From Myxococcales bacterium (GTDB lineage Bacteria; Myxococcota_A; Polyangia; Polyangiales; Houyiibacteriaceae): a stretch of 64,000 nt of DNA. A model generated the notes under the pieces. That model had not been told where the DNA came from. It saw only the letters and a list, made by a program, of their open reading frames with translations, and ran no database searches. A program made the translations under genes and the position numbers. Position 1 is the stretch's first letter, and the number at the start of each line of letters is the position of its first letter. Of this stretch, positions 28,733-57,565 are shown piece by piece. Location: NCBI GenBank assembly GCA_024640845.1, contig JAHEEE010000004.1, positions 14,567 through 78,566 of the forward strand, read 5' to 3'.

Positions 28733-28786
28733 CCACCCCTCCTCAACACCAGCCCTGTCGCTGAAGATCGGATAAATAGGAGGACG

Positions 28787-29277: not shown

Positions 29278-29289
29278 GCAGTATGGTGC

Positions 29290-38371: not shown

Positions 38372-38379
38372 GATTCACC

Positions 38380-39864: not shown

Positions 39865-41861
39865 GGGCCTGCCATCTTGGCGACGCGGAGCACCTCGGAC
39901 ACGCTCCATGCCTGTGCGGGGGTGCCACCCGGACGGTGAGGTGCGTCTCCATCGAACACCTCGCCGATCTGTCCGATGCAGCCTTCGGTCCGGAGATGTG
40001 CGCTGAGCGCCGCCAATGCGGGCATCATTTCTTCTTTCGCAGCCTCAGAACCTTCGACCGCGGCGACCGCGTCGGCGTACAGCCCCAGCAGCCACGGCCA
40101 GACCGTACCCTGATGGTATGCACGGTCCCGCTCGGTTTGCGCGCCTCGGTAAAACGGTCGGTAATCCGGGTCGTCGGGCGAAAGCGTACGCATCCCTACG
40201 GGGGTCAGGAGCTTGTCGCGCACCGCACGCAGCGCCCGTTGCTTTCGCTCCTTTTGAATCGGAACGCCGGGCAACACCAAAGCCCAAAGCTGGTTCGGTC
40301 GCAGCTTGCCGTCGCCATGATGTCCGTTGTGTGTGTCCGTCAAGAAGCCCTGATCATGAAGCCAGAACTTTTCCTCGAAGTGATCGGAGAGTTTCTTCGC
40401 CGTTTCGCTCCACGTTTCGATGAATTCCGGGCGGAGCTTTTTGGCCCAGCGGAGAGCGGAAAGAAGGCCCGAGAGCCACAGCGCGTTGAGGTCGACGGCG
40501 TACCCTTGCCGGGGCGTGACCGCGTGGCCGTCGACGAGCGCATCCATCCAAGTGAGCGCCCACGGCCCCTGCTCGACGAACAAGAACCCCTGTGCGTCGA
40601 TCCGGACGCGTGAATCAGCGCCCGCCGCGATGCTCTCGATCAGATCGAGGCATGCCTCCTGAAGCGGGGCGATTCGCTGGCTTCGTGTACGTTTCGAGAC
40701 CAGCGAAGTCGCGCGAATGAACAGAAGCGACGCGTCGATGGCCTCGCCGTTGGAGGGCACGTCGCCGCTTTGCGGGATGTTGGGGACGAGGCCGTTTTCG
40801 AGACGGCTCGCCAGGGATTCGAGGATATCGAGAGCCTTGCCGACCTCGTCGCGGGCCAAGCAAAGGCCAGGTAGGGCGATCAAGGTGTCGCGCGACCACT
40901 CTCCGAACCAGGGGTAGCCCGCGATGACGCCCGTGCGGCCTCCGTCGAGCTCGACGAGATAAGCATCCGCGGCATCTTCGAGCTCGCGCACGAAGGAACG
41001 ATGAGGTGCGAGGACCGAGCTCAGCACTTGGGGCTCGTGGGAGGTCGCCCGCGTGGTGCCGAGTCGGATGCAAAATGCCCCGTCGTGTTCGAGTCGCAGC
41101 CGGAACTCACCCGGTGTGAACAGGTCCTCGGCGTCGTCGTAGCCGCGCGCGCGCTCCCACTCGTAGTGGACGCCCTCGTACCAATGCCCGTCAGCGTGGA
41201 ATCGACTCGAAGCGCCGTGCATGCTCGCGATCAACGGAGGGACGTTCTTGTACGGATGCATGACGACCCGGAGCGAATCGCCCTGCTCGACCTCGATTTC
41301 GCCGTTCATGAACGAGTTCGCGAAAGTGAGCTTGTGAATCGGGCGACACCGAATCAGTGGGCGGAGCCGAAGGTCGACTGGCTTCTGGAGACCCTCGATC
41401 GAATACCGAATCCAGACCGCATCAGCGTCGTCCTCGAGCCAGAGCTCCCGGGTCACCGTCAGACCGGCGAACTGGTAGGTCCAGCGGGGCAGCGGCTCGA
41501 ATCGGGTGAGGTAGTCGACGCCCGTCGGCTCGACGGTGCTGCCCCAGTCGTAGCTGTGCAACGCGATCTCCTCGTCGGCTCCGACGTCGAACCACTCCTC
41601 GACTTCCGCGACCATGTTGAGTGGCTCACCGACGCCCGGCTCTCGAACTGTCAGAAGGCTGTGATACTTGCGGCGCGGGCAGCGATCGATCGTTCCCATC
41701 GCGAACGAGCCGCCCCGATTCACGCTCAACCACTCCGCGTCCGGGGTCGTCGCTGCGGCGGTGACTTCGGTGGAGTCCTCGGAGCTCCCCGGCTCCCTCG
41801 AAAGAAGACGCAGCCCTGGCGCGCCATCAGAGCGAGCAGGAAACCAACTGGGCAGAATCAC
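39861..41861 (-). CDS. Glycogen debranching enzyme (amylo-alpha-1,6-glucosidase, GDE_N + GDE_C/GH133-like)
   Basis: 666 aa. 'RKYHSLL' marks the N-terminal domain. The C-terminal (alpha/alpha)6 region has 'YPWFGEWSRDT' and 'YHQGTVWPWLLG'. GTG start. Confidence 0.85.
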   Translation of the reverse strand: MILPSWFPARSDGAPGLRLLSREPGSSEDSTEVTAAATTPDAEWLSVNRGGSFAMGTIDRCPRRKYHSLLTVREPGVGEPLNMVAEVEEWFDVGADEEIALHSYDWGSTVEPTGVDYLTRFEPLPRWTYQFAGLTVTRELWLEDDADAVWIRYSIEGLQKPVDLRLRPLIRCRPIHKLTFANSFMNGEIEVEQGDSLRVVMHPYKNVPPLIASMHGASSRFHADGHWYEGVHYEWERARGYDDAEDLFTPGEFRLRLEHDGAFCIRLGTTRATSHEPQVLSSVLAPHRSFVRELEDAADAYLVELDGGRTGVIAGYPWFGEWSRDTLIALPGLCLARDEVGKALDILESLASRLENGLVPNIPQSGDVPSNGEAIDASLLFIRATSLVSKRTRSQRIAPLQEACLDLIESIAAGADSRVRIDAQGFLFVEQGPWALTWMDALVDGHAVTPRQGYAVDLNALWLSGLLSALRWAKKLRPEFIETWSETAKKLSDHFEEKFWLHDQGFLTDTHNGHHGDGKLRPNQLWALVLPGVPIQKERKQRALRAVRDKLLTPVGMRTLSPDDPDYRPFYRGAQTERDRAYHQGTVWPWLLGLYADAVAAVEGSEAAKEEMMPALAALSAHLRTEGCIGQIGEVFDGDAPHRPGGTPAQAWSVSEVLRVAKMAGP

Positions 41862-41921
41862 GACACATACCCCCTGAGAAAAAGGTCCGGCCGGAAGAGC
41901 CGGATCAGAAGCATCCTCCTA

Positions 41922-41937
41922 AGCAGGAGGCGTGCCA
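41922..41937 (-). promoter_or_regulatory. Sigma-54 (-24/-12) promoter for the glycogen operon
   Basis: The minus strand reads TGGCACGCCTCCTGCT (perfect -24, -12 CTGCT). It lies about 60 nt upstream of the GTG at 41861. Confidence 0.65.
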
Positions 41938-41999
41938 AAGCCTGGCCTGAAGACCCGGGCCGTTCCGTCACAAACAGACAACATTAACGGTCCCTACGG

Positions 42000-42043
42000 C
42001 GCAATGAATGCGGGTTCAAGCAGTCATCGCGCAACCGGTGCGC
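42000..42043. promoter_or_regulatory. Tandem UAS candidates (CGCA-N5-TGCG x2)
   Basis: CGCAatgaaTGCG (42000-42012) and GCGCAaccggTGCGC (42029-42043) have centres 30 bp apart. They lie 70 and 100 bp upstream of the -24 GG. Confidence 0.6.
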
Positions 42044-44497: not shown

Positions 44498-45394
44498 CTA
44501 CCGGCCTTCGTGCGTGAGCAACAGCGGCACCTGGCTCTCGTGGAGGAGGCGTCGAGCGACGCTTCCGATGAGGAGGCGTTCTATGCCGCTCTTCCCCGTC
44601 GTGCCCGCACAAATGAGCGTTGCGTCGACGTCCTCCGCAATTTGGAGGATCCCCCCGGCGGGGTCGCCGGTCACGAGGTGGGTTTGGGCGTTCTGCGGGT
44701 CCGTCGAGAAGATCTCTTTGGAGTCCGCCTCGAGCATCTCCTGAAGACCGAGGCGAAGGGCCTCCCGACGCTTCTCCGCGGCTTCCCCAACGACGGCGCC
44801 GCGGTCGGTGTACTCGCCCCACACGTCGAGGTAGCTGTGCACCAAGTGAAGGGATCCGCCGAACACGCCATGAATCGCCCGCGCGACTTCGGCTGCTCGC
44901 TTGGCCGGGCCGGAAAAATCGTACGCGATGACGATGGAGGTCGGCGGCTTTTCATGTCCTCCCGGAGGAACTACGAGGATTGGCGTGTGCACGGTCTTGA
45001 TGACGCGCTCGGTGACGCTTCCGTACATGAGCTTCGAAACGCCCGTGCGGCCGTGGGTTCCGACGACGACTAAGTCGACGTCGTGTTCCTTGGCATAGTC
45101 TCGAATGACCTCGTGCACCGTGCCCTCGCGGATCGCCGTAAAAAGCTCGACGCCCGTGTCAGCGATGGTCTTGGCCTGCGCGTCCAGCGCTTCCTGCGAA
45201 TCGTTGAGAATCCGAGTGACGGCTTCCGGGCCTGGGCTGTAGCTCAAGTCCATCAAGAGATACGTCGGAACCACGGGCGTATGCAGGAGGTGTAGCTTTG
45301 CCGACCATCGCTTGGCCAGGTCGACGGCATAATCGACCGCGTGCTGGGCGTTGTCCGAGAAGTCGGTGGGCACGAGGATTTGATTGATCTGCAT
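44498..45394 (-). CDS. Universal stress protein, tandem USP domains
   Basis: Starts 'MQINQILVPTDFSDNAQHAV' and contains 'VDLVVVGTHGRTGV...VHTPILVV'. The second domain has 'TLICAGTTGKSGI...SQVPLLL'. Confidence 0.9.
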   Translation of the reverse strand: MQINQILVPTDFSDNAQHAVDYAVDLAKRWSAKLHLLHTPVVPTYLLMDLSYSPGPEAVTRILNDSQEALDAQAKTIADTGVELFTAIREGTVHEVIRDYAKEHDVDLVVVGTHGRTGVSKLMYGSVTERVIKTVHTPILVVPPGGHEKPPTSIVIAYDFSGPAKRAAEVARAIHGVFGGSLHLVHSYLDVWGEYTDRGAVVGEAAEKRREALRLGLQEMLEADSKEIFSTDPQNAQTHLVTGDPAGGILQIAEDVDATLICAGTTGKSGIERLLIGSVARRLLHESQVPLLLTHEGR

Positions 45395-45429
45395 GTGGCC
45401 TCTCTTGTCTCGTGAAGTCGCTGGCCTCG

Positions 45430-45891
45430 CTAGCCGCCGAAGGTATCATTCGGCATGATGTGATCGTGGAGGAGCTTCTCGTTCACGTATTCCCGCTCCT
45501 CCTCTTCGATGTCCTTGCGCAACATCTGCGCCAGCTTCACCACGCTGGCTTTCAAATCGTCCGATGAGCTCGCCTCGCGAATCTGATCGACCAAGCGGTC
45601 TAGCTCCTGGCGTTGATCGGCGTGCTCTGCGTGAAGGTGGCGGACCCGTTCTGGACCGAAGCCGTCCGCCTCGTTGATGGCGGGTACCATGTGGGCTTCC
45701 TCGAAGTTCATGTGCAGCTCCAAAATCCCGCGGAGCGCATAGGCGGCCCGCTTGACCTGGTCGGCGCCCACCGTGCCATCGCCTAGGTGCGTCACACCGG
45801 TCTCGAGCTCGGACAGCATCTGTTCGATCTCACGGTGCTGACTGAGTACCTTCCGCCGCACTTCGGAGGGCATCAACGGTTCGTCGCTCAT
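45430..45891 (-). CDS. Hemerythrin-like (HHE cation-binding) domain protein
   Basis: His/Glu spacing 'HREIEQ...HMNFEEAHMVP...HAEHADQRQE' is present. GGGAGGA lies 6 nt upstream of the ATG at 45891. The track start at 46014 is an extension. Confidence 0.6.
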   Translation of the reverse strand: MSDEPLMPSEVRRKVLSQHREIEQMLSELETGVTHLGDGTVGADQVKRAAYALRGILELHMNFEEAHMVPAINEADGFGPERVRHLHAEHADQRQELDRLVDQIREASSSDDLKASVVKLAQMLRKDIEEEEREYVNEKLLHDHIMPNDTFGG

Positions 45892-45928
45892 GGGTTCCTC
45901 CCGTTCCTCATCTTCCGCTCGGATGTGA

Positions 45929-45944
45929 TGCAAAGAATGCGCCA
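45929..45944 (-). promoter_or_regulatory. Sigma-54 (-24/-12) promoter for the hemerythrin operon
   Basis: The minus strand reads TGGCGCATTCTTTGCA, with correct spacing and a perfect -12 TTGCA. Confidence 0.65.
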
Positions 45945-45975
45945 AACGTTTAGCAGGATTTCGCTTCGCAGGACA

Positions 45976-46017
45976 CGCAAGTTCTGCGCCGGACTGGAAT
46001 GTTTCGCAGAACATGCG
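45976..46017. promoter_or_regulatory. Tandem UAS candidates between divergent promoters
   Basis: caCGCAagttcTGCGcc (45976-45988) and CGCAgaacaTGCGtg (46005-46017) have centres 29 bp apart. Together they form a larger inverted repeat, ACACGCAAGTTCTGCG-N16-CGCAGAACATGCGTGT. Confidence 0.6.
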
Positions 46018-46059
46018 TGTTTCTCGCTATGCTTTGCAGCCAATACCTGCAACCCAGGT

Positions 46060-46075
46060 TGGCACGAAGCTTGAT
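46060..46075 (+). promoter_or_regulatory. Sigma-54-like promoter candidate (non-canonical -12)
   Basis: TGGCACGAAGCTTGAT has a perfect -24 TGGCACG, but the -12 reads TTGA instead of TTGC. It lies 17 nt upstream of the USP ATG at 46091. Confidence 0.4.
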
Positions 46076-46090
46076 AGCGGAAGGGTAAAC

Positions 46091-46570
46091 ATGGACCAGC
46101 CTCGAACGATTCTCGTCGGTACCGACTTCTCCGACATCTCGGACGAAGCGTTGCGAGCGGCGTCTCTCTACGCCAGGACCTTCAACTCCCGCGTGCTCGT
46201 TACCCATATTTTCGACCCGACTCCCAACGTTCCGCCAGTGGTCTGGTCCCGTCCGGACCTTCTGGAGCGCAGCATCCGCATCGAAATCGAGGATGCCATC
46301 CGCGAAACTCTGACCGGCAAGACCGCGGAGTTGTTGAAGGGGGTCTCCGAGGTCGAGCTCAGCGTGGTTCAGCATCCTTCCCCAGGCCGGGCGCTCGTCG
46401 AGATCGCCGAAGACGAAGAAGTGGATCTCGTCATCCTGGGCTCGCACGGTCGGAGTGGCCTATCGCGGGCCTTCCTCGGCAGCGTCGCCGAGCGAGTCGT
46501 TCGACATGCGCCGTGCCCCGTATTGGTGGTGCGGGGTCGTTGTGACCACGAGCCGAAGCACGGAGAATAG
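46091..46570 (+). CDS. Universal stress protein
   Basis: Starts 'MDQPRTILVGTDFSDISDEAL' and contains 'VDLVILGSHGRSGL...APCPVLVV'. Confidence 0.9.
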   Translation: MDQPRTILVGTDFSDISDEALRAASLYARTFNSRVLVTHIFDPTPNVPPVVWSRPDLLERSIRIEIEDAIRETLTGKTAELLKGVSEVELSVVQHPSPGRALVEIAEDEEVDLVILGSHGRSGLSRAFLGSVAERVVRHAPCPVLVVRGRCDHEPKHGE

Positions 46571-46573
46571 CTA

Positions 46574-46984
46574 GTGTCATTGATCCCACGTTTGGTCGTT
46601 GCGTATGATTTCTCGGACCCGGCGAGGCGGGCCTTCGAGCTCGCGGTATTCATGGGTCGGCAGCTCGGCGCGGATGTCCACGTCGTCACGGTCCTCGACT
46701 CGAAGGAATCGAAGCCAGGCGCGGCCGGCGATGAGCTGGACGACCTCCGGAAGCTCCTCGAGATGCGGACCGCCGGTACAGTCAAGTCGGACGACGTGAA
46801 GCTTCAGTGCCACGCGCTCGCTGGCGAGCCTGCGGATGCGATCGTGGCGATCGCCAAGGAGATCGATGCGCCACTCATCATCTGCGGGACGACCGGCAAG
46901 GGTGCCGTGGCGCGGACACTGCTTGGCAGCGTGTCTCACGAGCTCGTTCACAAGAGCGGCGCAATCGTGATGTCGGTGCCGTAG
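46574..46984 (+). CDS. Universal stress protein
   Basis: GTG start 4 nt after the previous stop. Contains 'LVVAYDFSDPARRAF' and 'APLIICGTTGKGAV...SGAIVMSV'. Confidence 0.85.
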   Translation: MSLIPRLVVAYDFSDPARRAFELAVFMGRQLGADVHVVTVLDSKESKPGAAGDELDDLRKLLEMRTAGTVKSDDVKLQCHALAGEPADAIVAIAKEIDAPLIICGTTGKGAVARTLLGSVSHELVHKSGAIVMSVP

Positions 46985-46993
46985 CCTCGAGCG

Positions 46994-48382
46994 CTACGAC
47001 CCAGGACCGACGAACGGCGCTTCGACGAGGCGGGTACCCTTGCGGCCCTCGTTCCCTTCCATCGAGATCGAGAGCCGAATCTTGATGCCGCGCTTCATTT
47101 GCTCGGCGGGCAACTGGGCGAGTATTGGAAGATATGTGCTGCCTAGCGAGTCGAGCTCGATGCGCGTCTGCGGAATGATGTACTCGATGCCGCTTTCGGT
47201 CTCGGGTGTGACGACGAACGTCTGCCGTTCCGAGGTCTTGTTGATCAGGTGTACGCGCACGGCGTTCCGCACCTGTCCATCGATGACGGAGAACGGGGCC
47301 CCTTCGAGGCGTAAAACGTTGGTCTCGAACTGCGAGCTTTGTGCGAACGCAAACGCGGCGCCGATGAGCCACAATGTCGCGATACCGCCGTAGAAGAACA
47401 AGCGCGGGCGTCCCAAGTGCTTCGCCTTGCCCTCGAGTCCGTTGAGCGAGTCGTAGCGGACGAGACCCTTGTCCCGCCCGACTTTCTCCATGATCTCGTC
47501 GCAGGCGTCGACACATGCGGCACAGCCAATGCACTCCATTTGCAGGCCGTTTCGAATGTCGATGCCTGTCGGGCACACGACCACGCAGCGTTTGCAGTCG
47601 ATGCAGTCGCCGTTGCTAGGGTCACTTGCTTTGCCGCGGGGCTCGCCGCGGTTGAAGTCGTAGCCGATCACCATGGTGTCGCGGTCGGTCATCGCTGACT
47701 GAAGGCGGCCGTAGGGGCAGATGATCAGGCAGAGCTGCTCACGGAACCACGCGAAGTTGAACCAGAGGATACCGGACATCACGATCACCCAGGTGAACGC
47801 GGTCGGGTGCTCGGCGGGGCTTCGCTGCACCATGTCGACGACCGAGGGCAGGGAAACGAAGTAGCTGATGAATACGTGCGAGAGGAGAAGCGCGAGCACG
47901 ATGTAGATCGCGTGCTTGAGGGTCTTGCGCCAAACCTTGTCGAAAGTGACTCCTGCGGCATTCCTGCGAAGACGCTGCGCGCGCGGGCCCTCGATCCAGC
48001 GTTCGACGCGACGAAACACCCCTTCGAGGAAGACGGTTTGGGGGCATGCATAACCGCACCAAAGGCGGCCTTTGATGGCGGTGACGATCAAGAGCGAGAG
48101 GCCGACACCGCTCAAGAGGAAGAACATGAGCCAAAAGTCCTGCGCGTTGAACACGCTGCCGAACAAGTAGAAACGGCGGTTCACGATGTCCATGAACACC
48201 GCGGGATGGCCTCCGATCTTCACGAAGGGCAGCACGACGTAGATTGCGATCAGTGCGGCGAAGAAGATGTAACGGAGTCGCGTGAAGCGGCCATGCACAT
48301 CTGCGGGATGGACGTAGTTACGGCTGCCATCGGACCGAAGAGAGCTAGCGTGTTCCCCGACGACTGGCAGTTTCGAGCTCAT
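46994..48382 (-). CDS. ccoG: cbb3 oxidase accessory protein CcoG/FixG (polyferredoxin)
   Basis: Contains the motifs 'CGYACPQTVF', 'CIDCKRCVVVCPTGIDIRNG' and 'ECIGCAACVDAC'. Confidence 0.9.
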   Translation of the reverse strand: MSSKLPVVGEHASSLRSDGSRNYVHPADVHGRFTRLRYIFFAALIAIYVVLPFVKIGGHPAVFMDIVNRRFYLFGSVFNAQDFWLMFFLLSGVGLSLLIVTAIKGRLWCGYACPQTVFLEGVFRRVERWIEGPRAQRLRRNAAGVTFDKVWRKTLKHAIYIVLALLLSHVFISYFVSLPSVVDMVQRSPAEHPTAFTWVIVMSGILWFNFAWFREQLCLIICPYGRLQSAMTDRDTMVIGYDFNRGEPRGKASDPSNGDCIDCKRCVVVCPTGIDIRNGLQMECIGCAACVDACDEIMEKVGRDKGLVRYDSLNGLEGKAKHLGRPRLFFYGGIATLWLIGAAFAFAQSSQFETNVLRLEGAPFSVIDGQVRNAVRVHLINKTSERQTFVVTPETESGIEYIIPQTRIELDSLGSTYLPILAQLPAEQMKRGIKIRLSISMEGNEGRKGTRLVEAPFVGPGS

Positions 48383-48406
48383 AGTGCCCCCTTTAGGGCC
48401 AAGGGC

Positions 48407-48994
48407 CTATTCGGCAACCTGGCCGTCGGGCTTCCAAACCACTGCGTTCTCCTCGACGGGCTTGCCCCCTTCGAGGTTGGTGTTTCGCAGCGTCAGAACA
48501 TACGCAGTCACTTGGCTCACACCCTCTTCACCGAGAATGGGTCCCCAGGGAGTCATGCCTTTCTCCGGCACGCCATTCGTAACCGTCGCGTAAATGTCGC
48601 TCGGTGCGCCGCCGTGGATCCAGTATTCATCGGTGAGGTTCGAGCCGAGGCCCACCCGGCCCTGGCCTTGGTCATGGCACGCATAGCATTGCGTCGTGAA
48701 GATCTTCTTGCCCGCCTCGACGGCAGCTTCGTCATCCATCAAAGCGATGAGGGACTCGTCGGTGACGACGCTGCGTTCGGAGGCGGCGGCGGCCATCTGT
48801 TCGGCATACACCTCCGGCTGGAGCTTCCCGATCCCATATTCGTGGTAATAGAACCAATATACCAGCCCGAAGGCGATCGCTCCGTAGAACGTGAGCAGCC
48901 ACCAAGTCGGAAGGTTGTTGTCGGCTTCCTCGATATCGTCATAGACGTGGAGGATTTCGCCTTGGATTTCATCGGTTCGCTTGCCCTCACTCAT
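48407..48994 (-). CDS. ccoP: cbb3 oxidase subunit III CcoP, short monohaem form
   Basis: Has a FixP_N-like N-terminus ('NLPTWWLLTFYGAIAFGLVYW') and a single CxxCH ('CYACHD'). At 195 aa it is shorter than the usual dihaem ~300 aa. Confidence 0.8.
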   Translation of the reverse strand: MSEGKRTDEIQGEILHVYDDIEEADNNLPTWWLLTFYGAIAFGLVYWFYYHEYGIGKLQPEVYAEQMAAAASERSVVTDESLIALMDDEAAVEAGKKIFTTQCYACHDQGQGRVGLGSNLTDEYWIHGGAPSDIYATVTNGVPEKGMTPWGPILGEEGVSQVTAYVLTLRNTNLEGGKPVEENAVVWKPDGQVAE

Positions 48995-49172
48995 GGGGTA
49001 CCTCCAACTCCTCTTCGAGGGGAATGCGTGCGTTGTGATCCGCCTCGGCTGCGCTCATCCGCATCACGCGAACGACTACGACTAGAAACACGGTGAAAAA
49101 CAGAAGCAGCGCGATGACTGGGTAGAGCAACGCGGGGCTCTGCGCGAAGAACTCTGAAGCAAACCGGCTCAT
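48987..49172 (-). CDS. ccoQ: CcoQ/FixQ-like small membrane subunit
   Basis: 61 aa with a single TM segment ('[20 protein letters not shown]'). It lies between ccoNO and ccoP, with ATGA overlap to the ccoNO stop. Confidence 0.55.
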
Positions 49173-51511
49173 TGCCCTGCCTCCTCTCCTGCCGCAGCGA
49201 GCGCCTCGCCTTCGGGCACTTTGCCCAAACGTTGCAGGTACGCGATCAGCGCGACCAGGCGGCTGTTGACGACCAACTCGCAGCCTTCGATTTCCGCCTC
49301 GCACACTTTCACGCCCGCTTGCTCGGCTAAGCCTGCCGCGATTCCGGCGGCGGCAGTCTGAGCGTCCTGTTCGGACGTTTGAATCTGCTCGGGCTTATAC
49401 GGGACACCGACGTTTCTCAGGGCCCGCATCTTCGCGGCGGTGCCCGAAAAGTCGACGGTCCACGTCGCGAGGTGCGGGTAGGGCGGCATGTTGGAACCAG
49501 GCGAGATCTCGCGAGGGTCGATCATGTGTTTGTAGTGCCAGACATCGGCGTACTTGCCGCCGACACGCGCCAAGTCCGGACCGATGCGGCGAGAGCCCCA
49601 CTGGAACGGATGGTCGAAGATCGAGTCGTCGATCGTAGAAACGGCGCCATAGCGCGCGGTCTCCCAGGTGAACGGTCGAATCATCTGCGAGTGGCAGGTG
49701 TAGCAACCTTCGCTGATGAAGACGTCCCTGCCTTCGAGCTCGAGCGGGGTGTAGGGCACGTTCTTGGTAGTTCGAATCGACTCGGGCACCGAGATGACCA
49801 TCGGGATGATCTCTGCAACGCCGCCGACCAGGATGCCGATCGTTACGAGTACCGTGAAGACGCCTGCACGACCTTCGAGCACGCTGTGCCATGGGATTTT
49901 CTCACTGCCTCGGTCACGAATCATGATGGCGATCGCTGCGACGGCCCACATGATGGCGAAGAGCGCGAGGACCGTGCTGATCAAGCCGTCGAAGAGCACC
50001 ATGCCAAACAGAAGCGCCATCACGATGATGGACGCCATCACCGGTTGGCCGAAGAGGAGCTTCGGCCACGGCACCTCGCGGGTGCGTGGCTCGGTGACGA
50101 CAGCAACCTCGATCTCGCCGTCGACCGCCGCGCCGCTGCGGGCGGTCGCGATGAGGTTCCAGGCCATCAGGATGATCCCCGCGAAGTAGAGGAGCCCGGA
50201 GATGAGACGGGCCCAGTACATCGGTCGAATCGCGAGATAGGTCTCGACGAAGTTCGGGTAGAGCAACCCGCCGGTCTCGCTGACCGCGCGCCACATCAAG
50301 CCTTGCGTGATGCCCGCGACCCACATCGAGATCGCGTAGATAAGAATTCCAACTGTCGCGATCCAGAAGTGGAAGTTAGCGGCCCCACGCGAGTGAAGCT
50401 TCGTTCCGTACAGCCTCGGCACCAGCCAGTAGAACATGCCGGCGGCCATCAGACCGTTCCAGCCCAAGGCGCCGCTGTGCACGTGACCGATGATCCAGTC
50501 CGTGTAGTGTGCGAGGCCACTGACGCTCTTGATTGAAAGCAGCGGGCCCTCGAAGGTGCTCATGCCATAGAAGGTGACGCCTGCCGCGAAGAACTTCAGG
50601 ACTGGGTCGGCGCGGAGCTTGTCCCACGCGCCGCGCAGCGTGAGTAGGCCGTTCAGCATGCCGCCCCAGCTCGGGGCCCACAGCATCAAGCTGAAGACCA
50701 TGCCGAGGCTCTGCGCCCAGTCGGGCAGTGCTGTGTAGAGCAAGTGGTGAGGGCCGGCCCAGATGTAGATGAAGACCAAGCCCCAGAAGTGAACGATCGA
50801 GAGGCGGTACGAGAAGACGGGGCGTTCGGCCGCCTTCGGAAGGAAGTAGTACATGATGCCGAGGATTGGCGTAGTGAGGAAGAAGGCGACGGCATTGTGG
50901 CCGTACCACCATTGGACGAGTGCATCCTGGACGCCGGCGAAGACCGAGTAGCTCTTCAGCATCGTCACCGGGATCTCGAAGCTGTTCACGATGTGGAGGA
51001 CGGCCACCGTGATGATCGTCGCGATGTAGAACCAGATCGCGACGTAAAGGTGCTTCTCGCGCCGTTTCGCGAGGGTCCAGAAAAAGTTCACCGCGAAGAC
51101 GACCCATATCAGGGCGATCGCAATGTCGATCGGCCACTCGAGCTCGGCGTATTCCTTCGAGGTCGTGATGCCGAGCGGAAGAGTGATCGCCGCGGATACG
51201 ATGATGAGCTGCCAACCCCAGAAGTGGATCGAGGACAAGATGTCGGAAGCTAAACGTGCTTTCACCAATCTCTGCGTCGAGTAGTAGACACCCGCAAACA
51301 ACATGTTGCCGACGAACGCGAAGATGACCGCATTGGTGTGCAACGGCCTCAGGCGACCGAACGACAAGAACGGCGGCAAGTTCGCCGGCCAGAACGCCAA
51401 CTGCAGGGCGATGATGATGCCCACCAGCATGCCGACGATGCCGAACAGCACCGACGCCCAAATGAACTGGCGGACGACTTTGTCGTTATAAACGATCCGC
51501 TGAGTTTCCAT
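49169..51511 (-). CDS. ccoNO: Fused cbb3 oxidase subunits I+II (CcoN-CcoO)
   Basis: 780 aa. The N-terminal ~480 aa is a haem-copper oxidase subunit I of cbb3 type. The C-terminal part carries the CcoO haem-c site '[12 protein letters not shown]' after a TM segment. Confidence 0.9.
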
Positions 51512-51686
51512 ACTCGTCCTCTTCCCTCTCCGTCGTTGGGGTCACCGGCTTTTCATCGTCAAGCGGCAGCAAAGCAAGGCGATCGGCCTGATCGAACGTG
51601 CCTTGCCGTACGGTCCACGCGAAGAACGCCACGGCGACGCCAACCAATACTACGCAAACGAAAATCAGTAAGATCAAGATCTCCAT
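51486..51686 (-). CDS. ccoS: cbb3 oxidase maturation protein CcoS/FixS
   Basis: '[33 protein letters not shown]' gives the typical CcoS size and sequence. Confidence 0.75.
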
Positions 51687-54082
51687 GGGCGCCCTCGTCG
51701 CGACAGCATCATCACCGTATACGCGAGCGTGATGAGTGAGCTGAGCGGCATTAGCACAGCTGCGACCCATGGTTTCATCAAACCCGCCATGGCGATCGAT
51801 ACAGCGACCAGATTGTATGCGATTGCAAACGCGAGTATGCGACGCACCACGTGCGCCAGCGAATCCGAGGCGCGCAAGACTTGCGCCACTGGGTGCAAGC
51901 CTGGGGACACGAAGTAGAAGTCACATCGCGAGGCCATGAACGGTCGATCGACTGCAGGAGTACCCGAACAAGCCGCCTCTCTCATCGCGACTTGGTCGTT
52001 CAAGCCATCGCCCACCAGCAAAGTCCGTGCCGGATCGTGCTCACGCACATACGCGGCCTTTTGTTCAGGGCTCTTCCCGCCGATACACCTGCTCTCGGGC
52101 ATGCCGAGGCTGGCGCCGAGGGTCGTCACACGCTGCTGCCCATCCCCACTGAGGATCGCGAGCTCGTACCCCCGCTGCTCGAGCTTGTCGATTTCGTCGC
52201 GAGCGCCGGGTCGAAGCTGCTCATCGGTGGTGATGCTCGCGAGCACTTTCCCATTCGCAGAGAAGACGACGTCGCCGTCGCTCCTTGCGGGGCCCGCCGC
52301 CCACTCCGGCGCGCCGAGCCGGTAGTCGATGTCGGCCCGCCGGGCCGAGATCCCATAGCCGGTGTGCTCTTCGGCCTCGATCTCGGCGAAGCGCGCGGCG
52401 GGATGCCCTTCGAGCGCGCGCCGAACGGCGACGCTCTTCGGGTGCGCGCTGCGGGCCGCCATGTTGTAGACGACGGCAATCTCCGCGTCCGCGAGGCGTC
52501 TCAACGGGGCCGGATCGACCACCTCGAGGACCCCGGTCGTCAACGTTCCCGTCTTGTCGAACACGATCCGGGTCATCGAGCGGACCCGGTCGAGAAAATC
52601 GCCTACGCGCACGAAGATGCCAAGGCGTCGGAGCTGGGTGAGGACCAGCTCGTACGCGAGCGGAGCGGCGATGCCGAATGCGCAGGGGCAGGTCACCACG
52701 AGGACCGCGGTGCCGACCTCGATTGCGCGGAGCGGCTCGCCGCTTCGCCACCACCAGAAGCCGATCGCGGCGCTCGCCAGCGTAATGACGCCGACGACGT
52801 AATAGCGTGAGAGCCGCGACCACCACTCGGACGCCAAGGGTCCGTCTCCTTTGTTCGCCGGGTCACTCCCGAGGAGGCCCACCAATGACGAAGCCGCAAA
52901 GTCGCTCAATGCAACCCCGGAGAACGCGCGTTCGCCGACGTTGAAAGCGCCGGCTGGGATGGTGTCGCCCCCCTCGAATCTTCGCGGTCGGCTCTCTCCG
53001 TCGATCCAGTCGAGCGAGCAGCGCACCGTGTCGTCGACGACCCGAAGATCGACGGGCACGAGATCCCCGGGTGCGATCAGCAAGCGATCCCCATTGCGGA
53101 TTCCGATGCAATGCACGATGCGAACGACGCCGTCCTTCACCTCGCGCGTGAGCAGGCTTTCGGTGCCGTCATCCGCGAGCAGCTGGGCGCGGTTGCGTTC
53201 GAGCATGCGCTGCTGGAGCCAACGGCCGACCAACATCAGCGCGACGAACACGGTCAGCGTGTCGATGTAGGCCGCTTCTCCCGAAGCGAAGAAGAACGAC
53301 CACGTCGAGCCGATGAAGGCGAGAACGATGCCGAGCGCGATGGGCACGTCGAGGTGCAGGATGCCCCGCCGAACTGCACGCGCGGCCGAGCCGATGAAGA
53401 CCGACCCGCCCACCAGCACCGCGAGCACGCCGGCGGCATAGCTCAAGTCGTTGAGGATCTCGTAGACGGGCCCCTCGCGAAGGCCGAGATAGATTGCGGC
53501 GGCGAACAGCATGACGTTCATGGCGAGCGCGGCGCAGATGCCGACGCGCAACAGAAGGTCGTCAGAAGGGCGCGCGCCTGTCGAACGGGCGGGGCCGAGC
53601 AGGTAGCCAAGGCCCTCGACCGAATCGACCCAATCGGAGAGCGGGAACTCTGGCGGGATGCGGAGCTCGATGCGGCCGAGCGCCGGGTTGATGGTCATGA
53701 GCCCGGCCTGCGCCCCCCCTTGGCGGCGAAACAGCTCCTCGACGAGCCAAACGCAGGCTGCGCAGTGGATCCCCTGGATGTCCAGCTCGACGCGAGAGAG
53801 ACCTCGTTCGTGGGCCCGCGCCTCCTCGATCAGCTCGAGCCACTTGTGATCGATGTGACGCGCATCGAGATCGGCAGGCGGAAGACCGGGGCCACTTCGC
53901 AGGTCGTAGTAGCGCGTCAGCCCGGCTTTGTTGAGGATGGCGTGCACCGCCCGGCACCCGCGGCAGCAGTACGGGGCGAATGCGTCGCTGACCAGCGGTT
54001 GCGCGCAGTGCACACAACGCGAGCCGGCGTGGAGTGGTTCCCCGAGCGTGGTCTCACAGACAGCGGGTTGAGGAGCGGTCAC
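51674..54082 (-). CDS. ccoI: Copper-translocating P1B-type ATPase (CcoI/FixI-like)
   Basis: Contains 'DKTGTLT', a 'CPC' TM motif, an N-terminal Cys-rich region, and an HMA-like motif 'HCAACV'. It sits within the cco cluster. Confidence 0.9.
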   Translation of the reverse strand: MTAPQPAVCETTLGEPLHAGSRCVHCAQPLVSDAFAPYCCRGCRAVHAILNKAGLTRYYDLRSGPGLPPADLDARHIDHKWLELIEEARAHERGLSRVELDIQGIHCAACVWLVEELFRRQGGAQAGLMTINPALGRIELRIPPEFPLSDWVDSVEGLGYLLGPARSTGARPSDDLLLRVGICAALAMNVMLFAAAIYLGLREGPVYEILNDLSYAAGVLAVLVGGSVFIGSAARAVRRGILHLDVPIALGIVLAFIGSTWSFFFASGEAAYIDTLTVFVALMLVGRWLQQRMLERNRAQLLADDGTESLLTREVKDGVVRIVHCIGIRNGDRLLIAPGDLVPVDLRVVDDTVRCSLDWIDGESRPRRFEGGDTIPAGAFNVGERAFSGVALSDFAASSLVGLLGSDPANKGDGPLASEWWSRLSRYYVVGVITLASAAIGFWWWRSGEPLRAIEVGTAVLVVTCPCAFGIAAPLAYELVLTQLRRLGIFVRVGDFLDRVRSMTRIVFDKTGTLTTGVLEVVDPAPLRRLADAEIAVVYNMAARSAHPKSVAVRRALEGHPAARFAEIEAEEHTGYGISARRADIDYRLGAPEWAAGPARSDGDVVFSANGKVLASITTDEQLRPGARDEIDKLEQRGYELAILSGDGQQRVTTLGASLGMPESRCIGGKSPEQKAAYVREHDPARTLLVGDGLNDQVAMREAACSGTPAVDRPFMASRCDFYFVSPGLHPVAQVLRASDSLAHVVRRILAFAIAYNLVAVSIAMAGLMKPWVAAVLMPLSSLITLAYTVMMLSRRGRPWRS

Positions 54083-54816
54083 GGTGTATGCTGATGGTGT
54101 TCGTGTGCGGCCCCGGCATCGGACGCAGAGCCCTCCTCAGAAGGACCGTGGCATGCTGCCGTGTCGCCGTGGCGCAGCGCGTGAACCGGTCGAATGACGA
54201 ACATGACGGCGCCGAGCGCGAGCACGACTGCGAGAATGCGGGAGGTCGTAGGTCGCGGGCGGCGCGAGAAGCGCTCGAACAGCCACGCCGCCCCGACCAA
54301 GCCGACGCCGCTCACCATGGCGAATGCCAACATGCTCAGAGCGCCGGCCGTGGCGGCCCCAGTCGATGCGGCGATGAGAACCGCGGCTGCGAGCGCCCCG
54401 CAGGGGAGCAGCGCCGTGCCGAGCCCCACGAAGAACGGATGGCGTCCGAGCGCGCGAACCACGTTGGACCCGGTCGACTTCGAAGCCGCTTCCTCTTTGG
54501 TACGCAGCGAGACCAAGGCTTGGTCGGGGCGTCGCCACAAGCGAAACGCGGCCAGACCCAAACCGAGCGCAAGCGACCAGCTCAGAAGCGCGCTGCCCCA
54601 TGCGCCTGGCAAGCTCACCGCTGTCGCGCCGCCCACCGCGCCCGCGGTCCCACCGAGGACGGAGTAACTGATGAAGCGTCCGAGCTGATAGCGGCCTTGA
54701 CCCAGTGCTCCTGGGCTTCCGCTGCATGCATAGGCCGCCAAAGGGCCGCACATCGCAGTGCAATGCGGAACCGATGCGAGGCCTGCGGCAGCCCCGGCAA
54801 TTACAGCCGTCCACAT
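54079..54816 (-). CDS. DsbD_2 / TauE-SafE-like membrane protein (HCxxMCGP motif)
   Basis: 245 aa and multi-TM, with 'VPHCTAMCGPLAAYAC'. Its stop overlaps the ccoI start. Proteins of this kind commonly accompany ccoI/ccoS. Confidence 0.65.
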   Translation of the reverse strand: MWTAVIAGAAAGLASVPHCTAMCGPLAAYACSGSPGALGQGRYQLGRFISYSVLGGTAGAVGGATAVSLPGAWGSALLSWSLALGLGLAAFRLWRRPDQALVSLRTKEEAASKSTGSNVVRALGRHPFFVGLGTALLPCGALAAAVLIAASTGAATAGALSMLAFAMVSGVGLVGAAWLFERFSRRPRPTTSRILAVVLALGAVMFVIRPVHALRHGDTAACHGPSEEGSASDAGAAHEHHQHTP

Positions 54817-54853
54817 ACGGCCTCGTTAGGGTCAGTCATCCAGCCTGTCACCA

Positions 54854-54869
54854 CGCAACCCATATGCCA
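54854..54869 (-). promoter_or_regulatory. Sigma-54 (-24/-12) promoter for the cco operon
   Basis: The minus strand reads TGGCATATGGGTTGCG (TGGCAT-N5-TTGC). It lies 38 nt upstream of the ATG at 54816. Confidence 0.65.
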
Positions 54870-54900
54870 CGGGTTCTTGGGTCTCCCTTATACTCGAAGA

Positions 54901-54913
54901 CGCATATTTTGCG
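54901..54913. promoter_or_regulatory. UAS candidate CGCA-N5-TGCG
   Basis: gaCGCAtatttTGCGcg, centred 39 bp upstream of the minus-strand -24 GG, in a divergent intergenic region. Confidence 0.55.
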
Positions 54914-54981
54914 CGACACTCCCCGAAGCACCGCGAAAATGCCGTGGATCGCGGCCCGGCGGGTGCTATCCCCAGGGGGCG

Positions 54982-55830
54982 ATGGCAACCGAACGCCGCA
55001 TGATCCCGCGCGAACACGGCGCCTACGCGGAGCTTCTCTTCCCGATCGTCACGGTTTTCTTGGGTGGCTTGCCAACGATCTCAACCTGCTTGCTCGCGCT
55101 TGGCGCCATCGCTGCATTCCTCGCGAACGAGCCGCTGCTCGTGCTGGTCGGGCAACGTGGCACCCGGATAAAGCGCGACGAGGGCGACCGCGCCAATCGC
55201 GCGCTGCTGATTTTCGCAATCGTCGCGCTTGCATCCGGGCTTTCGGGCCTCGCCCTCGCCCCGCGGGCTGCGCAGGTTGCCGTGGTGCTGCCGCTATTGC
55301 TCGGTGGGACCCTGATCTTATTGGCGATTCAGGGGCTCGAGCGGAGCGTGTTCGGCGAAGCCCTGGCGGCCGCGGCATTATCTTCGGTGGCGGTGCCGCT
55401 AGGGCTTTCTGCCCACTTGGAGCTGACCGCTGTGCTTGCCGTCGCGTTGATTTGGGCGGTCAATGCGCTCCTCGGGACGTCAGTCGTTCGGCTGACGCTC
55501 GCGCGCACGAAGGCCAAGACCGCGGAGGAGACTGCGGCCGTGCACCTGAAGCGCACAGGCCTCATCCTGTTGTGCCTGGGGGTGATCGCGGTCGGCGTGG
55601 CCGCGCCGTTTGGCACCCGAGTCGGGCTCTGGGTGTTGGCGGCCGCTGTGCCCGCCGCCGTTGCTGTGCTCGTGATGGCCGCCCTTCGGCCAACGGCCCG
55701 CCGGCTCCGCCTGATGGGATGGAGCCTCGTTGGCGCCAACCTTCTTTCGCTGATTGCAGTGGTCACGACGCTAAGGATCATTCAGGATTTCAACGCGGTG
55801 GAACCGACCCTACCGTTTCCCATGTTCTAG
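54982..55830 (+). CDS. YwiC-like family membrane protein
   Basis: Starts 'MATERRMIPREHGAYAELLFP' (the family-typical P-x-EHGA-W/Y start) and has about 8 TM segments. The track ORF from 54034 is an antisense extension. Confidence 0.65.
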   Translation: MATERRMIPREHGAYAELLFPIVTVFLGGLPTISTCLLALGAIAAFLANEPLLVLVGQRGTRIKRDEGDRANRALLIFAIVALASGLSGLALAPRAAQVAVVLPLLLGGTLILLAIQGLERSVFGEALAAAALSSVAVPLGLSAHLELTAVLAVALIWAVNALLGTSVVRLTLARTKAKTAEETAAVHLKRTGLILLCLGVIAVGVAAPFGTRVGLWVLAAAVPAAVAVLVMAALRPTARRLRLMGWSLVGANLLSLIAVVTTLRIIQDFNAVEPTLPFPMF

Positions 55831-55841: not shown

Positions 55842-56255
55842 GTGCTGGTAAAAGACATCATGACCGAAAACCCCGTGACCGCGACGGAGCTCATGACCGT
55901 AGCTGAGGCCCTCGGGTTGTTGTACGAGCTCGATGTTCGCCACCTCCCGGTGGTCCGCGGAAGCGAGCTCGCTGGAATCGTGAGCGACCGTGACCTTCGT
56001 GGCTTCACCGCGCCGAGCGAAGACGAGGCGATCGAAGCCATCGAGAGGGCACGAAGCTCGAACGTCGGCAACTTCATGAACACCGATCCCATTCGCGTCG
56101 ATCCGGAGACCAACGTTCGGGAGATCGTAGAGCTCATGCTCGTGCATCGCGTTGGCGCGATTCCCGTGTGCGACCTCGACACGGGCGACCTGCTCGGCAT
56201 CGTGAGCTATATCGACGTGTTGCGAGCGCTGCAGGAGACACTGGGACAGGCGTGA
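55842..56255 (+). CDS. CBS-pair domain protein
   Basis: GTG start preceded by AGGAG (55831-55835). Contains 'DVRHLPVV' and 'HRVGAIPVCD'. Confidence 0.8.
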   Translation: MLVKDIMTENPVTATELMTVAEALGLLYELDVRHLPVVRGSELAGIVSDRDLRGFTAPSEDEAIEAIERARSSNVGNFMNTDPIRVDPETNVREIVELMLVHRVGAIPVCDLDTGDLLGIVSYIDVLRALQETLGQA

Positions 56256-57565
56256 AGCTCGTCACCTCACACGAGAACACCGACTTCGATGGGCTGGCCT
56301 CGTGTGTAGCGCTTCAGAAGCTCCTGCCAGGGGCCGTGATTGGCCTCAGCGGCGGGTTCGCCTCGAACGTCCACCAGTACCTGACGCTCCACAGGGATCG
56401 GTTTCGCGTCGAGCGTTGTGAGGATCTCGATTTGTCCGAGGTCGATCTCCTCGCCGTGACCGACGTTCGAAAGCGCCATCGCCTCGCGCATGTCGAGCCG
56501 GTGTTCCAGCGAGCCGTCGACAACCCGCGAAGCGTGCGCGTCATCGTGTGGGATCACCATCCGGCGTCGCCCGACGATCTTCATGCTGACGAAGAGCACG
56601 TGCAGCCGGTCGGCTCGGTCACCACGTTGCTCGTCGAGGAGCTCCGAGCGCGCGGGATCGAGATCGACCGGAAAGAGGCGACCCTGTTTTCGCTCGGCAT
56701 TCACGAGGACACCGGATCGCTCTCGTACGCCCGTTCGAGCTCGCGGGATGCCACGGCTCTGGCTTGGCTCCTCGGACACGGCGCACAACCGGCTCTCCTG
56801 CAGCGATTCCTTCGACCCGCGCTCAACGGAATGGAACGCGACTTGCTGGTTCGACTGATCGACGGTGTGAAGGAACTGCCGCGATTCGGGGTCTCGATCG
56901 GGGTCTCGGCGTTGGAAACCGAAGAAGTCCCCGCGAGTCTCGCGCTCGTCTCGACCGAGGCGTTTCGCATTCTGTCTCACGACGCGCTCTTTTGCATCTA
57001 TCGCTTGCCCAACGGCAAGTCGCACATCGTCGGCCGTGCTCAAGCCAACGCGGTGCCCATTGGTGCGATCCTCGAAAGGCTCGGTGGGGGAGGGCACGCC
57101 GGCGCCGGCTCGGCGTCGGTTCACGGTCTCTCGCTCGACGAGATCGTGAGTCGCCTCGAGGAAGGCGTCGACCGTTGCTGCCTCCAGCCGCAGTTCGTAC
57201 GCGACCTCATGTCGAGCCCTGTTCGCACGGTCGGCCCCGGCACACCACTTTCCGAGCTCGCGAGCTCGTTGCGCGAGTGGGGGCATACCGGTGCCCCGGT
57301 CGTCGTCGATGGGCAACTCGTCGGGGTCGTTTCACGCCGCGACGTCGAGCGCGCGCAACGCGAAGGCCGAGGCCATCTCGCTGTGAAGAGCTGCATGGCG
57401 CACCATGTCTCGAGCATCGGTCCCGACGCGCCGCTCCAAGAAGCCCTCGAGCAGATGCAGACGCACAACATCGGCCGGCTCCCGGTGCTCGATGGGACGC
57501 GGGTGATCGGCATCCTTTCCCGCGAGGACGTTCTCGGATATCTCTACGAGCAGTCGCCCTGCTGA
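56252..57565 (+). CDS. DHH/DHHA1 phosphoesterase fused to a C-terminal CBS pair
   Basis: GTG start overlaps the previous stop (GTGA). Contains 'HENTDFDGLAS', 'WDHH' and 'GGGGHAGAG', followed by two CBS motifs. Confidence 0.8.
   Translation: MKLVTSHENTDFDGLASCVALQKLLPGAVIGLSGGFASNVHQYLTLHRDRFRVERCEDLDLSEVDLLAVTDVRKRHRLAHVEPVFQRAVDNPRSVRVIVWDHHPASPDDLHADEEHVQPVGSVTTLLVEELRARGIEIDRKEATLFSLGIHEDTGSLSYARSSSRDATALAWLLGHGAQPALLQRFLRPALNGMERDLLVRLIDGVKELPRFGVSIGVSALETEEVPASLALVSTEAFRILSHDALFCIYRLPNGKSHIVGRAQANAVPIGAILERLGGGGHAGAGSASVHGLSLDEIVSRLEEGVDRCCLQPQFVRDLMSSPVRTVGPGTPLSELASSLREWGHTGAPVVVDGQLVGVVSRRDVERAQREGRGHLAVKSCMAHHVSSIGPDAPLQEALEQMQTHNIGRLPVLDGTRVIGILSREDVLGYLYEQSPC

Follow-up and report, generated by a model that had tools for sequence, protein, structure and literature searches.

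The cbb3 oxidase gene cluster

A 64-kb stretch of DNA from a Myxococcales bacterium (the window; all positions below are those of the whole stretch) carries a cluster of genes for a cbb3-type cytochrome oxidase and its maturation, preceded by a short intergenic region in which control by a sigma-54 promoter and a bacterial enhancer-binding protein (bEBP) had been proposed in a preliminary description. Genes were called from the open reading frame (ORF) map of the window and from Pfam and NCBIfam profile scans, with the family cut-offs given for each gene. The cluster consists of seven co-directional genes, read on the minus strand from 54816 to 46994:

54079-54816, minus strand: dsbD2, DsbD_2/TauE-like membrane protein with HCxxMCGP and LPCG motifs (PF13386, 96.8 bits); gene 1 of the operon
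51674-54082, minus strand: ccoI, copper-translocating P1B-type ATPase (E1-E2_ATPase, Hydrolase and, N-terminal, ATPase-cat_bd; matches TIGR01525 and TIGR01511, each under its own cut-off)
51486-51686, minus strand: ccoS (fixS; PF03597, 32.9 bits; TIGR00847, 31.8 bits, cut-off 28.35), with the start set at the ATG of MEILILL
49169-51511, minus strand: ccoNO, fused subunit I and monohaem subunit II, 780 aa (NF011053, 1169 bits, cut-off 1080)
48987-49172, minus strand: CcoQ/FixQ-like small membrane protein, 61 aa (PF05545, 21.5 bits, under the cut-off of 29)
48407-48994, minus strand: ccoP, monohaem subunit, 195 aa (FixP_N and one Cytochrome_CBB3 domain, one CxxCH)
46994-48382, minus strand: ccoG (fixG), ferredoxin-type accessory protein (TIGR02745, 441.8 bits, cut-off 316.7); last gene

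The order is thus dsbD2-ccoI-ccoS-ccoNO-ccoQ-like-ccoP-ccoG. Neighbouring genes are joined by GTGA and ATGA overlaps (the dsbD2 stop and the ccoI start share the GTGA) and by overlaps of 8, 13 and 26 nt, and there is a single gap, of 24 nt. CcoNO is encoded in one ORF with the COX1 domain at residues 11-440, the FixO domain at 542-764 and a CxxCH motif. CcoP scored 92.1 bits against the dihaem equivalog model TIGR00782, far from the cut-off of 179.95, and with its single cytochrome c domain and single CxxCH is not of the dihaem type. The 61-aa protein fits CcoQ by its size and its position between ccoNO and ccoP, and tblastn found positional equivalents in several related loci. The maturation proteins CcoG, CcoI and CcoS are all encoded in the cluster. 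A six-frame translation of the window gave no match with E<1 to FixH/CcoH (PF05751) when it was searched with a hidden Markov model (HMM) built from nine FixH proteins of related clusters, each verified with PF05751. Gene content and order, the CcoNO fusion, the one-haem CcoP and, within the 64-kb window, the missing CcoH were therefore as the preliminary description had given them. Two convergent universal stress protein (USP) genes lie 3' of ccoG, and on the other side a YwiC-like gene starts divergently at 54982, which leaves a control region of 165 bp.

Elements of the control region

The following elements were located between dsbD2 and the ywiC-like gene:

54854-54869, minus strand: sigma-54-type -24/-12 element P1, TGGCATATGGGTTGCG (TGGCAT-N5-TTGCG; motif scan and alignment)
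54900-54914, no strand assigned: site S2, GCGCAAAATATGCGT, matching the enhancer consensus GCGCA-N5-TGCGC of the regulator NmpR at 14/15 positions
54930-54944, no strand assigned: position of the distal site S1, CGGCATTTTCGCGGT, degenerate here; relatives carry TCGCATTTTCTGCGC, 30 bp centre-to-centre from S2
54887-54892, minus strand: TATAAG, a -10-like hexamer between S2 and the -24 element, where conservation is highest (block TGCGTATTCGGGTATAAG)

The sigma-54 element and the CGCA-N5-TGCG core upstream of it (CGCAAAATATGCG, 54913-54901) had been reported before, and both were found in place. P1 starts 38 nt from the centre of S2 and ends 38 nt from the ATG of dsbD2. Sigma-54-like motifs with up to two mismatches occur in the window at a frequency of 1.7e-4 per base per strand, from which about 0.03 chance matches are expected on the correct strand of the 165-bp region. 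A generic scan for sigma-70 consensus promoters found nothing upstream of the operon, and terminator-like matches were at background level.

Other readings of the same letters were considered for this region: a MerR-type operator (the palindrome would have its centre at -27 with respect to TATAAG) or a class II Crp/Fnr site, an extracytoplasmic function (ECF) sigma factor promoter (CGTAT), a site for integration host factor (IHF), and a leaderless promoter (GTGACC-17-TAGGGA). All were dropped, because the palindrome is the published NmpR consensus and because it co-occurs with sigma-54 motifs.

NmpR-type sites and sigma-54 promoters across the window

The CGCA-N5-TGCG core occurs 13 times in the window, against 4.0 +/- 2.0 expected, and none of 100 shuffled sequences reached this number. 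The 15-bp site with one mismatch was enriched only weakly (18 against 10.8; 5 of 100 shuffles reached 18), so that it is the 13-bp core and its positional association with promoters that carry the argument. Intergenic palindromes form pairs 29-30 bp apart (28690/28720, 42000/42030, 45976/46005, and 54901 with the degenerate 54931); for 15-bp sites this centre-to-centre distance means 14-15 bp between sites, which is the spacing preferred by NmpR. At five promoters a sigma-54 motif oriented towards the gene follows the palindromes at a distance of 25-105 nt; seven palindromes are involved, where 0.35 are expected, and one in 20000 random placements did as well. The five motifs and the genes that they precede are:

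23956, plus strand: TGGCACGCACTTTGCT, perfect motif; USP gene, then a gene for a protoglobin-HisKA-HATPase kinase
28635, minus strand: GGGCTCGCATCTTGCT; wax ester/triacylglycerol synthase (WS/DGAT) gene, then a gene for a REC-Sigma54_activat-HTH_8 regulator
41937, minus strand: TGGCACGCCTCCTGCT; operon for glycogen debranching enzyme, GT4, GH57 and glycogen synthase/phosphorylase
45944, minus strand: TGGCGCATTCTTTGCA; hemerythrin gene, then a tandem USP gene
54869, minus strand: TGGCATATGGGTTGCG; cco operon

Pairs of GCGCA-N5-TGCGC sites 14-15 bp apart, at least one of them near-perfect and with GCA-N5-TGC intact, were found at the hemerythrin and glycogen promoters and inside ccoI; the last pair is described below. 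The cco and hemerythrin promoters agree in having 38 nt between the S2 centre and the -24 element, and the hemerythrin promoter has no TATAAG. At the hemerythrin promoter of a related locus (L001) S1, S2, GG and TTGCA were kept, and the spacer varied.

The published NmpR system and a candidate regulator

In Myxococcus xanthus the NtrC-like protein NmpR binds GCGCA-N5-TGCGC (McAllister et al. 2025, J Bacteriol 207:e00280-24, PMC11841059). According to that work there are normally two sites, the distal S1 and the proximal S2, 14-15 bp apart and upstream of a sigma-54 promoter, and S2 is the essential one. Electrophoretic mobility shift assays (EMSA) and lacZ fusions established that NmpR activates the CBS-protein operon that contains nmpR, the nmpU-T-S operon, a USP gene, hemN-hemerythrin, and mxan_5543-5538, where a P-type ATPase gene is followed by the genes for cbb3 oxidase. 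Of the other Nmp proteins, NmpU is a haem-based sensor kinase of the protoglobin type, and NmpS acts as an inverter (PMC11841059).

The window contains a pair of adjacent, convergent genes whose products match NmpU and NmpR in domain architecture:

24491-25708, plus strand: protoglobin-HisKA-HATPase sensor kinase (NmpU/AfGcHK-like; Pfam domains), 3' of the USP gene at 23993-24472
25716-27164, minus strand: REC-Sigma54_activat-HTH_8 response regulator (NmpR-like bEBP; Pfam domains), 3' of the WS/DGAT gene at 28624-27176

The promoter upstream of the kinase gene has a perfect sigma-54 element at 23956-23971 and an NmpR-type site at 23868-23882.

The two systems are alike in the enhancer consensus, the spacing of the site pairs and the sigma-54 promoter downstream of them; in the targets, which include the Cu-ATPase and cbb3 genes, hemerythrin, USPs, CBS proteins and the operon of the sensor kinase; and in the protoglobin-domain sensor, the NtrC-type regulator and an ATPase gene that precedes the oxidase genes. 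Taken together, site sequence, spacing, promoter type and target genes argue that the window reproduces the published system. There are also differences. Here dsbD2 is the first gene and co-directional, whereas it is divergent in L005 and L006, two loci of Myxococcaceae; neither nmpS nor nmpT is found near the kinase and regulator genes or elsewhere among the window genes; the apparent regulon is extended by WS/DGAT, by no fewer than five USP genes and by the glycogen operon with its four genes; S1 of the cco promoter is degenerate, and there is an extra, conserved site pair within ccoI. Finally, binding and activation were established by experiment in M. xanthus, whereas the system described here is known from its sequence.

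On these grounds we consider it probable (roughly 0.7) that the cco operon is under the control of an NmpR-type bEBP acting on the sigma-54 promoter P1. In this scheme, when oxygen becomes limiting, an NtrC-type bEBP of the NmpR kind, for which the product of 25716-27164 beside the protoglobin haem sensor kinase is the candidate, would be phosphorylated. It would then bind the GCGCA-N5-TGCGC sites upstream of dsbD2, that is S2 (54914-54900) and the weaker S1 30 bp further up, and would drive the ATP-dependent opening of the sigma-54 holoenzyme complex at TGGCAT-N5-TTGCG (54869-54854). In this way the oxidase subunits would be induced along with CcoS and the Cu-ATPase, and together with hemerythrin, USPs, CBS proteins, wax-ester/triacylglycerol synthase and the glycogen operon. 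We infer that the regulator encoded in the window is orthologous to NmpR, and also that P1 is active in vivo. The preliminary description had suggested a sigma-54/bEBP route as a wiring different from the usual one. Since the promoter matches the published NmpR system, the proposal appears right in kind, and it is supported by the NmpR consensus, by conservation in relatives, by four other promoters of the same architecture and by the presence of bEBP and kinase genes in the window; as a mechanism, it had already been described, NmpR control of an ATPase-cbb3 operon having been demonstrated in M. xanthus in 2025 (PMC11841059).

Conservation of the control region in relatives

When metagenomes were scanned with the DsbD_2 protein, 63 loci of 71-90% identity were obtained in which the dsbD2-ccoI arrangement was kept, and the upstream regions of 56 unique relatives were aligned. 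Conserved blocks in these 56 regions were GGGATAGCACCCGC next to the start of ywiC, the distal palindrome CGCATTTTCTGCG and the proximal palindrome CGCAATATnTGCG (30 bp apart), TATTCGGGTATAAG, the sigma-54-like element, GTGAC, and CGACCCTA with the ribosome-binding site. The 13-bp core of S2 was exact in 51 relatives, and a good S1 was present in many. GG-N10-GC at the fixed position (-53 from the ATG), with at most three mismatches to TGGCAC-N5-TTGCW, was found in 34 of the 56, with 0, 1, 2 and 3 mismatches in 2, 8, 16 and 8 sequences, respectively; GG and TTGC were kept, and the spacer varied. In the more distant locus L007 a perfect sigma-54 promoter and two NmpR-like sites lie upstream of ccoNO.

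Further blocks were noticed in the flanks of the region. In the dsbD2 5' leader (54821-54851, minus strand), GTGAC is strongly conserved at about the predicted sigma-54 start site, as is (C/T)GACCCTA just 5' of the dsbD2 ribosome-binding site. At 54958-54981, just upstream of the ywiC-like gene, GGGATAGCACCC (GGGTGCTATCCC on the plus strand) is nearly invariant. This block may be the -10 region of the ywiC-like gene, in which case the distal NmpR site would be centred near -42. When the alignment was inspected by eye for a sigma-54 motif serving the divergent ywiC gene, none with the right spacing was seen.

Several observations weigh against control from P1. The P1 motif has two mismatches (T at the sixth position and G after TTGC); at S1 only 4/10 specified bases match; and the distance from the centre of S2 down to the predicted start, only about 64 nt, is short for an enhancer. 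About 20 of the 56 relatives lack the GG and/or the GC at the P1 position, two sub-clades have lost the element, in L107 the whole of it is deleted, and in the closest relative, L081, a one-base insertion between -24 and -12 makes the spacer N6. The best-conserved block upstream of the operon is TGCGTATTCGGGTATAAG, not the -24/-12 element. As to the regulator, the bEBP is a candidate orthologue of NmpR (MXAN_4240) by its domain architecture and its adjacency to the kinase gene, and neither NmpS (REC-HisKA) nor NmpT (REC-REC) was found among the window genes scanned with Pfam. These two proteins may be encoded elsewhere in the genome, or else the relay may be simpler here; since NmpS is the inverter in M. 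xanthus, a simpler relay would raise the question of signal polarity.

Additional promoters and alternative explanations

Two features lying within the coding sequence of ccoI also bear on how the operon may be transcribed:

51842-51886, no strand assigned: intragenic NmpR-type pair at the 3' end of ccoI, GCGCAAGTCTTGCGC (15/15) and GCGCACGTGGTGCGT (14/15), 30 bp centre-to-centre
51740-51769, minus strand: nearly invariant 30-nt block TGGGTCGCAGCTGTGCTAATGCCGCTCAGC, a dip in synonymous-site entropy; candidate promoter P2

Measured downstream from the centre of the closer internal site, the block begins after 80 nt, and about 54 nt separate its end from the following ccoS. Another sequence in ccoI, CGGCACGGACTTTGCT (52032-52017, minus strand), departs from the sigma-54 consensus by a single mismatch; conserved in about 30 relatives, it shows low synonymous variation at CCG, GCA and TTG codons. 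It was rejected as the promoter for the intragenic pair, as it sits upstream of the sites and overlaps the conserved VGDG-coding region.

The loss of the sigma-54 motif in a third of the relatives, combined with the invariance of TGCGTATTCGGGTATAAG, argues for another promoter, and the sigma-54 element is probably not the only promoter of the operon. Judging by the conservation patterns, P1 is probably supplemented by TATAAG, as a further promoter of sigma-70-like type, and by a promoter inside ccoI under the control of NmpR. Taken further, it could be proposed that the operon is transcribed mainly from a sigma-70-type promoter with TATAAG (54892-54887) as its -10, that the sigma-54-like motif is a decaying or dispensable relic, and that the palindromes are operators. 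TATAAG and its flank, like the proximal palindrome, persist in almost all 56 relatives, including the roughly 20 without the sigma-54 motif and L107 with its deletion, and the insertion in L081 and the degenerate S1 of the window point in the same direction. A protein bound at S2, whether NmpR or another, would then reach into the -35 region. The arrangement at E. coli glnA is comparable: there, NtrC sites overlap the weak sigma-70 promoter glnAp1 and lie upstream of the sigma-54 promoter glnAp2, an order like that of S2, TATAAG and the sigma-54 element here, although this is an analogy only, the proteins and sites being unrelated. On the other hand, TATAAG has no recognisable -35 (CGCGCA stands at 17-bp spacing) and no TG extension, which is why the consensus scan did not call it; the sigma-54 motif has a selection-like pattern in most relatives, with two perfect copies; the geometry of P1 is identical to that of the hemerythrin promoter, which manages without TATAAG; and NmpR-type proteins are obligate sigma-54 activators (PMC11841059). 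A main role for this promoter therefore seems unlikely to us, even though it would be compatible with a dual-promoter design and is not strictly exclusive with NmpR control of P1.

Somewhat better placed, though still doubtful, is the proposal that ccoS-ccoNO-ccoQ-ccoP-ccoG are transcribed mainly from an internal NmpR-dependent promoter at the 3' end of ccoI, P1 serving chiefly dsbD2-ccoI. The perfect and the near-perfect site (51886-51842) are conserved in about 30 relatives, among them those without the P1 motif, and the block at 51769-51740 is almost invariant at synonymous positions despite the non-preferred codons GCA, GCT and CTA; its distance of 80 nt from the nearer site is close to the 81 nt at the USP-kinase promoter, and an intragenic NmpR promoter has a precedent in pilR (PMC11841059). 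Yet the block is a poor match to the sigma-54 consensus (GGGTCG-N5-GTGCT, five mismatches), and no cleaner candidate was found downstream of the pair; part of the constraint is on the protein, since a conserved transmembrane helix of the ATPase is encoded here; and of the five predicted sites that were not bound by NmpR in M. xanthus four were intragenic (PMC11841059). Control by an FNR/FixK/Crp-family protein through a non-canonical box, with the sigma-54-like sequence as a chance match, would be the textbook route for ccoNOQP genes, and a sigma-54 match with up to two mismatches has a chance of about 3% in a region of 165 bp. However, scans by mismatch count agreed with the earlier remark that no FNR/FixK box is visible: TTGAT-N4-ATCAA was not found with up to three mismatches in 54797-55001 or with up to one mismatch in the whole window, nor was TTGA-N6-TCAA found. 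No Crp/Fnr-family gene was detected among the window genes scanned with Pfam, and the statistics of co-occurrence of palindromes and sigma-54 motifs argue against chance, all of which makes this explanation very improbable. NmpR-type control of P1, probably with help from the additional promoters, is thus the reading that we prefer.

Comparison with other fused-CcoNO loci

The preliminary description regarded the layout of the cluster as peculiar. At least 8000 homologues of CcoNO have both COX1 and FixO domains, while a look-up of the exact CcoNO sequence among public assemblies gave no record. Among the matches listed, the nearest, with 85-94% identity, were from metagenome-assembled genomes (MAGs) named Polyangiales, Myxococcales or Deltaproteobacteria. 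A scan of species-representative genomes with CcoNO gave at least 599 matches; the best 80 loci, onto each of which the seven window proteins were mapped, were analysed. They span Myxococcota, Planctomycetota, Verrucomicrobiota, Bacteroidota, Bdellovibrionota, Ignavibacteriota, Calditrichota, Kiritimatiellota and Eisenbacteria. In 70 loci the position of ccoI could be assessed, and in 46 of these it immediately preceded ccoNO on the same strand; ccoNO-ccoP-ccoG were colinear in 70 of the 80, and CcoP had exactly one CxxCH in 72 of 74. A DsbD_2 homologue lay inside the cco cluster in 49 of the 80 loci, mostly last, after ccoG, and was upstream and co-directional only in L001, L017 and one other. 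The FixH HMM found no match in any Myxococcota, Planctomycetota, Verrucomicrobiota or Bdellovibrionota locus examined, whereas the Bacteroidota and Ignavibacteriota loci have a Pfam-verified FixH gene between ccoG and dsbD2. In six Verrucomicrobiota loci (L012-L014, L016, L023, L025) the order was ccoNO-(Q)-P-G-dsbD2-ccoI, with the maturation genes last, which indicates that gene order in the fused clade is phylum-specific. The fusion itself has a dedicated NCBIfam model (NF011053), and the fused gene has already been called ccoNO, for instance in Melioribacter roseus, with homologues in Bacteroidetes (PMC5492636).

This survey does not bear out the claim of peculiarity: across at least eight phyla, the layout found in the majority of the fused-CcoNO clade has ccoI/ccoS ahead of the ccoNO fusion, a one-haem CcoP, and ccoG at the end. 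Like the fusion, the "reversed" order is typical of the lineage, and so are a CcoP with one haem and the absence of CcoH from the locus. The locus is a standard cbb3 (C-type haem-copper) oxidase cluster of the fused-CcoNO lineage in a Polyangiales-like myxobacterium. The Bacteroidota/Ignavibacteriota clusters (M. roseus CcoNO MROS_1513, Cu-ATPase MROS_1511; PMC5492636) are alike in the order ccoI-(ccoS)-ccoNO-(ccoQ)-ccoP-ccoG, the one-ORF CcoNO, the CcoP with one CxxCH and the DsbD_2/TauE-like gene; they differ in having FixH between ccoG and dsbD2, dsbD2 last and a CcoP of about 290-330 aa.

The proteobacterial systems share with the cluster the enzyme family and the CcoG, CcoI and CcoS maturation functions, and there the genes are induced at low oxygen; they differ in having separate ccoN and ccoO genes, a dihaem CcoP, CcoH, structural genes before maturation genes, and sigma-70 promoters with TTGAT-N4-ATCAA boxes. 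The proteobacterial ccoNOQP and ccoGHIS genes (Rhodobacter, Bradyrhizobium, Pseudomonas) are under FNR/FixK/Anr control. A summary of this control is given in PMC11841059.

Neighbouring genes and promoters

At 27176-29221 the WS/DGAT gene (28624-27176) immediately precedes the co-directional bEBP gene, an arrangement that recalls tgs1 of the mycobacterial DosR regulon. Its promoter has a sigma-54-like element (28635-28620) and the site pair 28690/28720, spaced by 30 bp; a divergent CBS-pair gene (28787-29221) shares this pair. A perfect sigma-54 promoter, TGGCACGGTGCTTGCT, at 29262 on the plus strand, stands 25 nt upstream of a tandem-USP gene (ATG 29302; region 29262-30180); no exact NmpR core was found within 200 nt upstream of it.

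The glycogen operon (32919-42043, minus strand) has four genes, for a debranching enzyme, a GT4/GT5 glycosyltransferase, a GH57 protein and a 1417-aa glycogen synthase-phosphorylase fusion; its promoter combines TGGCACGCCTCCTGCT (41937-41922) with NmpR-type sites at 41999-42013 and 42029-42043, the latter 15/15. The region 44498-46984 contains the hemerythrin gene (true start probably ATG 45891), the tandem USP gene and two more USP genes. A perfect NmpR site, GCGCAACATCTGCGC (45517-45531; TGGCGCAGATGTTGCG on the minus strand), lies inside the hemerythrin gene, upstream of the USP gene, and TGGCACGAAGCTTGAT (46060-46075, plus strand), in which the -12 is GA and not GC, faces a divergent USP gene. 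Downstream of ywiC, genes for a CBS-pair protein and a DHH-DHHA1-CBS protein occupy 55863-57565, and an operon for Na+-translocating NADH:quinone reductase (nqrA, nqrB, nqrC-like) begins within 60343-63998.

Significance

The Mycobacterium tuberculosis DosR regulon is a USP-rich hypoxia regulon that includes WS/DGAT (tgs1) and is activated by a NarL-type regulator with a sigma-70-family holoenzyme. The USP link of this dormancy regulon is cited in PMC11841059. With the window it shares USPs and WS/DGAT, again as an analogy only, with unrelated proteins and sites. Tentatively, and with the odds rather against it, the window could be seen as a compact, DosR-like hypoxia/dormancy programme run wholly via sigma-54 from at least six promoters (cbb3, hemerythrin and USP, three further USP loci, CBS proteins, WS/DGAT co-transcribed with the regulator, and the glycogen operon) by a kinase and an NmpR-type activator, apparently without NmpS/NmpT. 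Such a programme would include a tiered cco design, with a sigma-70-like TATAAG overlapped by S2, the sigma-54 promoter P1 and an intragenic, NmpR-controlled P2; if this were true, P2 would uncouple the oxidase subunits from the Cu-ATPase.

Gene order, CcoNO fusion, monohaem CcoP and missing CcoH are features of a very widespread enzyme form, and what remains of interest is the enlarged DosR-like regulon, the possible tiered promoters and the fact that NmpS/NmpT were not found in the window. So far M. xanthus is the only organism in which control of cbb3 oxidase by NmpR and sigma-54 has been demonstrated; the same route is predicted here, from promoter sequence, for a distant myxobacterial order (Polyangiales-type) whose members are known chiefly from metagenomes of marine and sediment origin. 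Compared with M. xanthus, the apparent regulon is larger, extending to storage lipid, glycogen and many USPs, while consensus and pair spacing are the same, which suggests that the NmpR site may be a usable predictor of low-oxygen regulons across Myxococcota.

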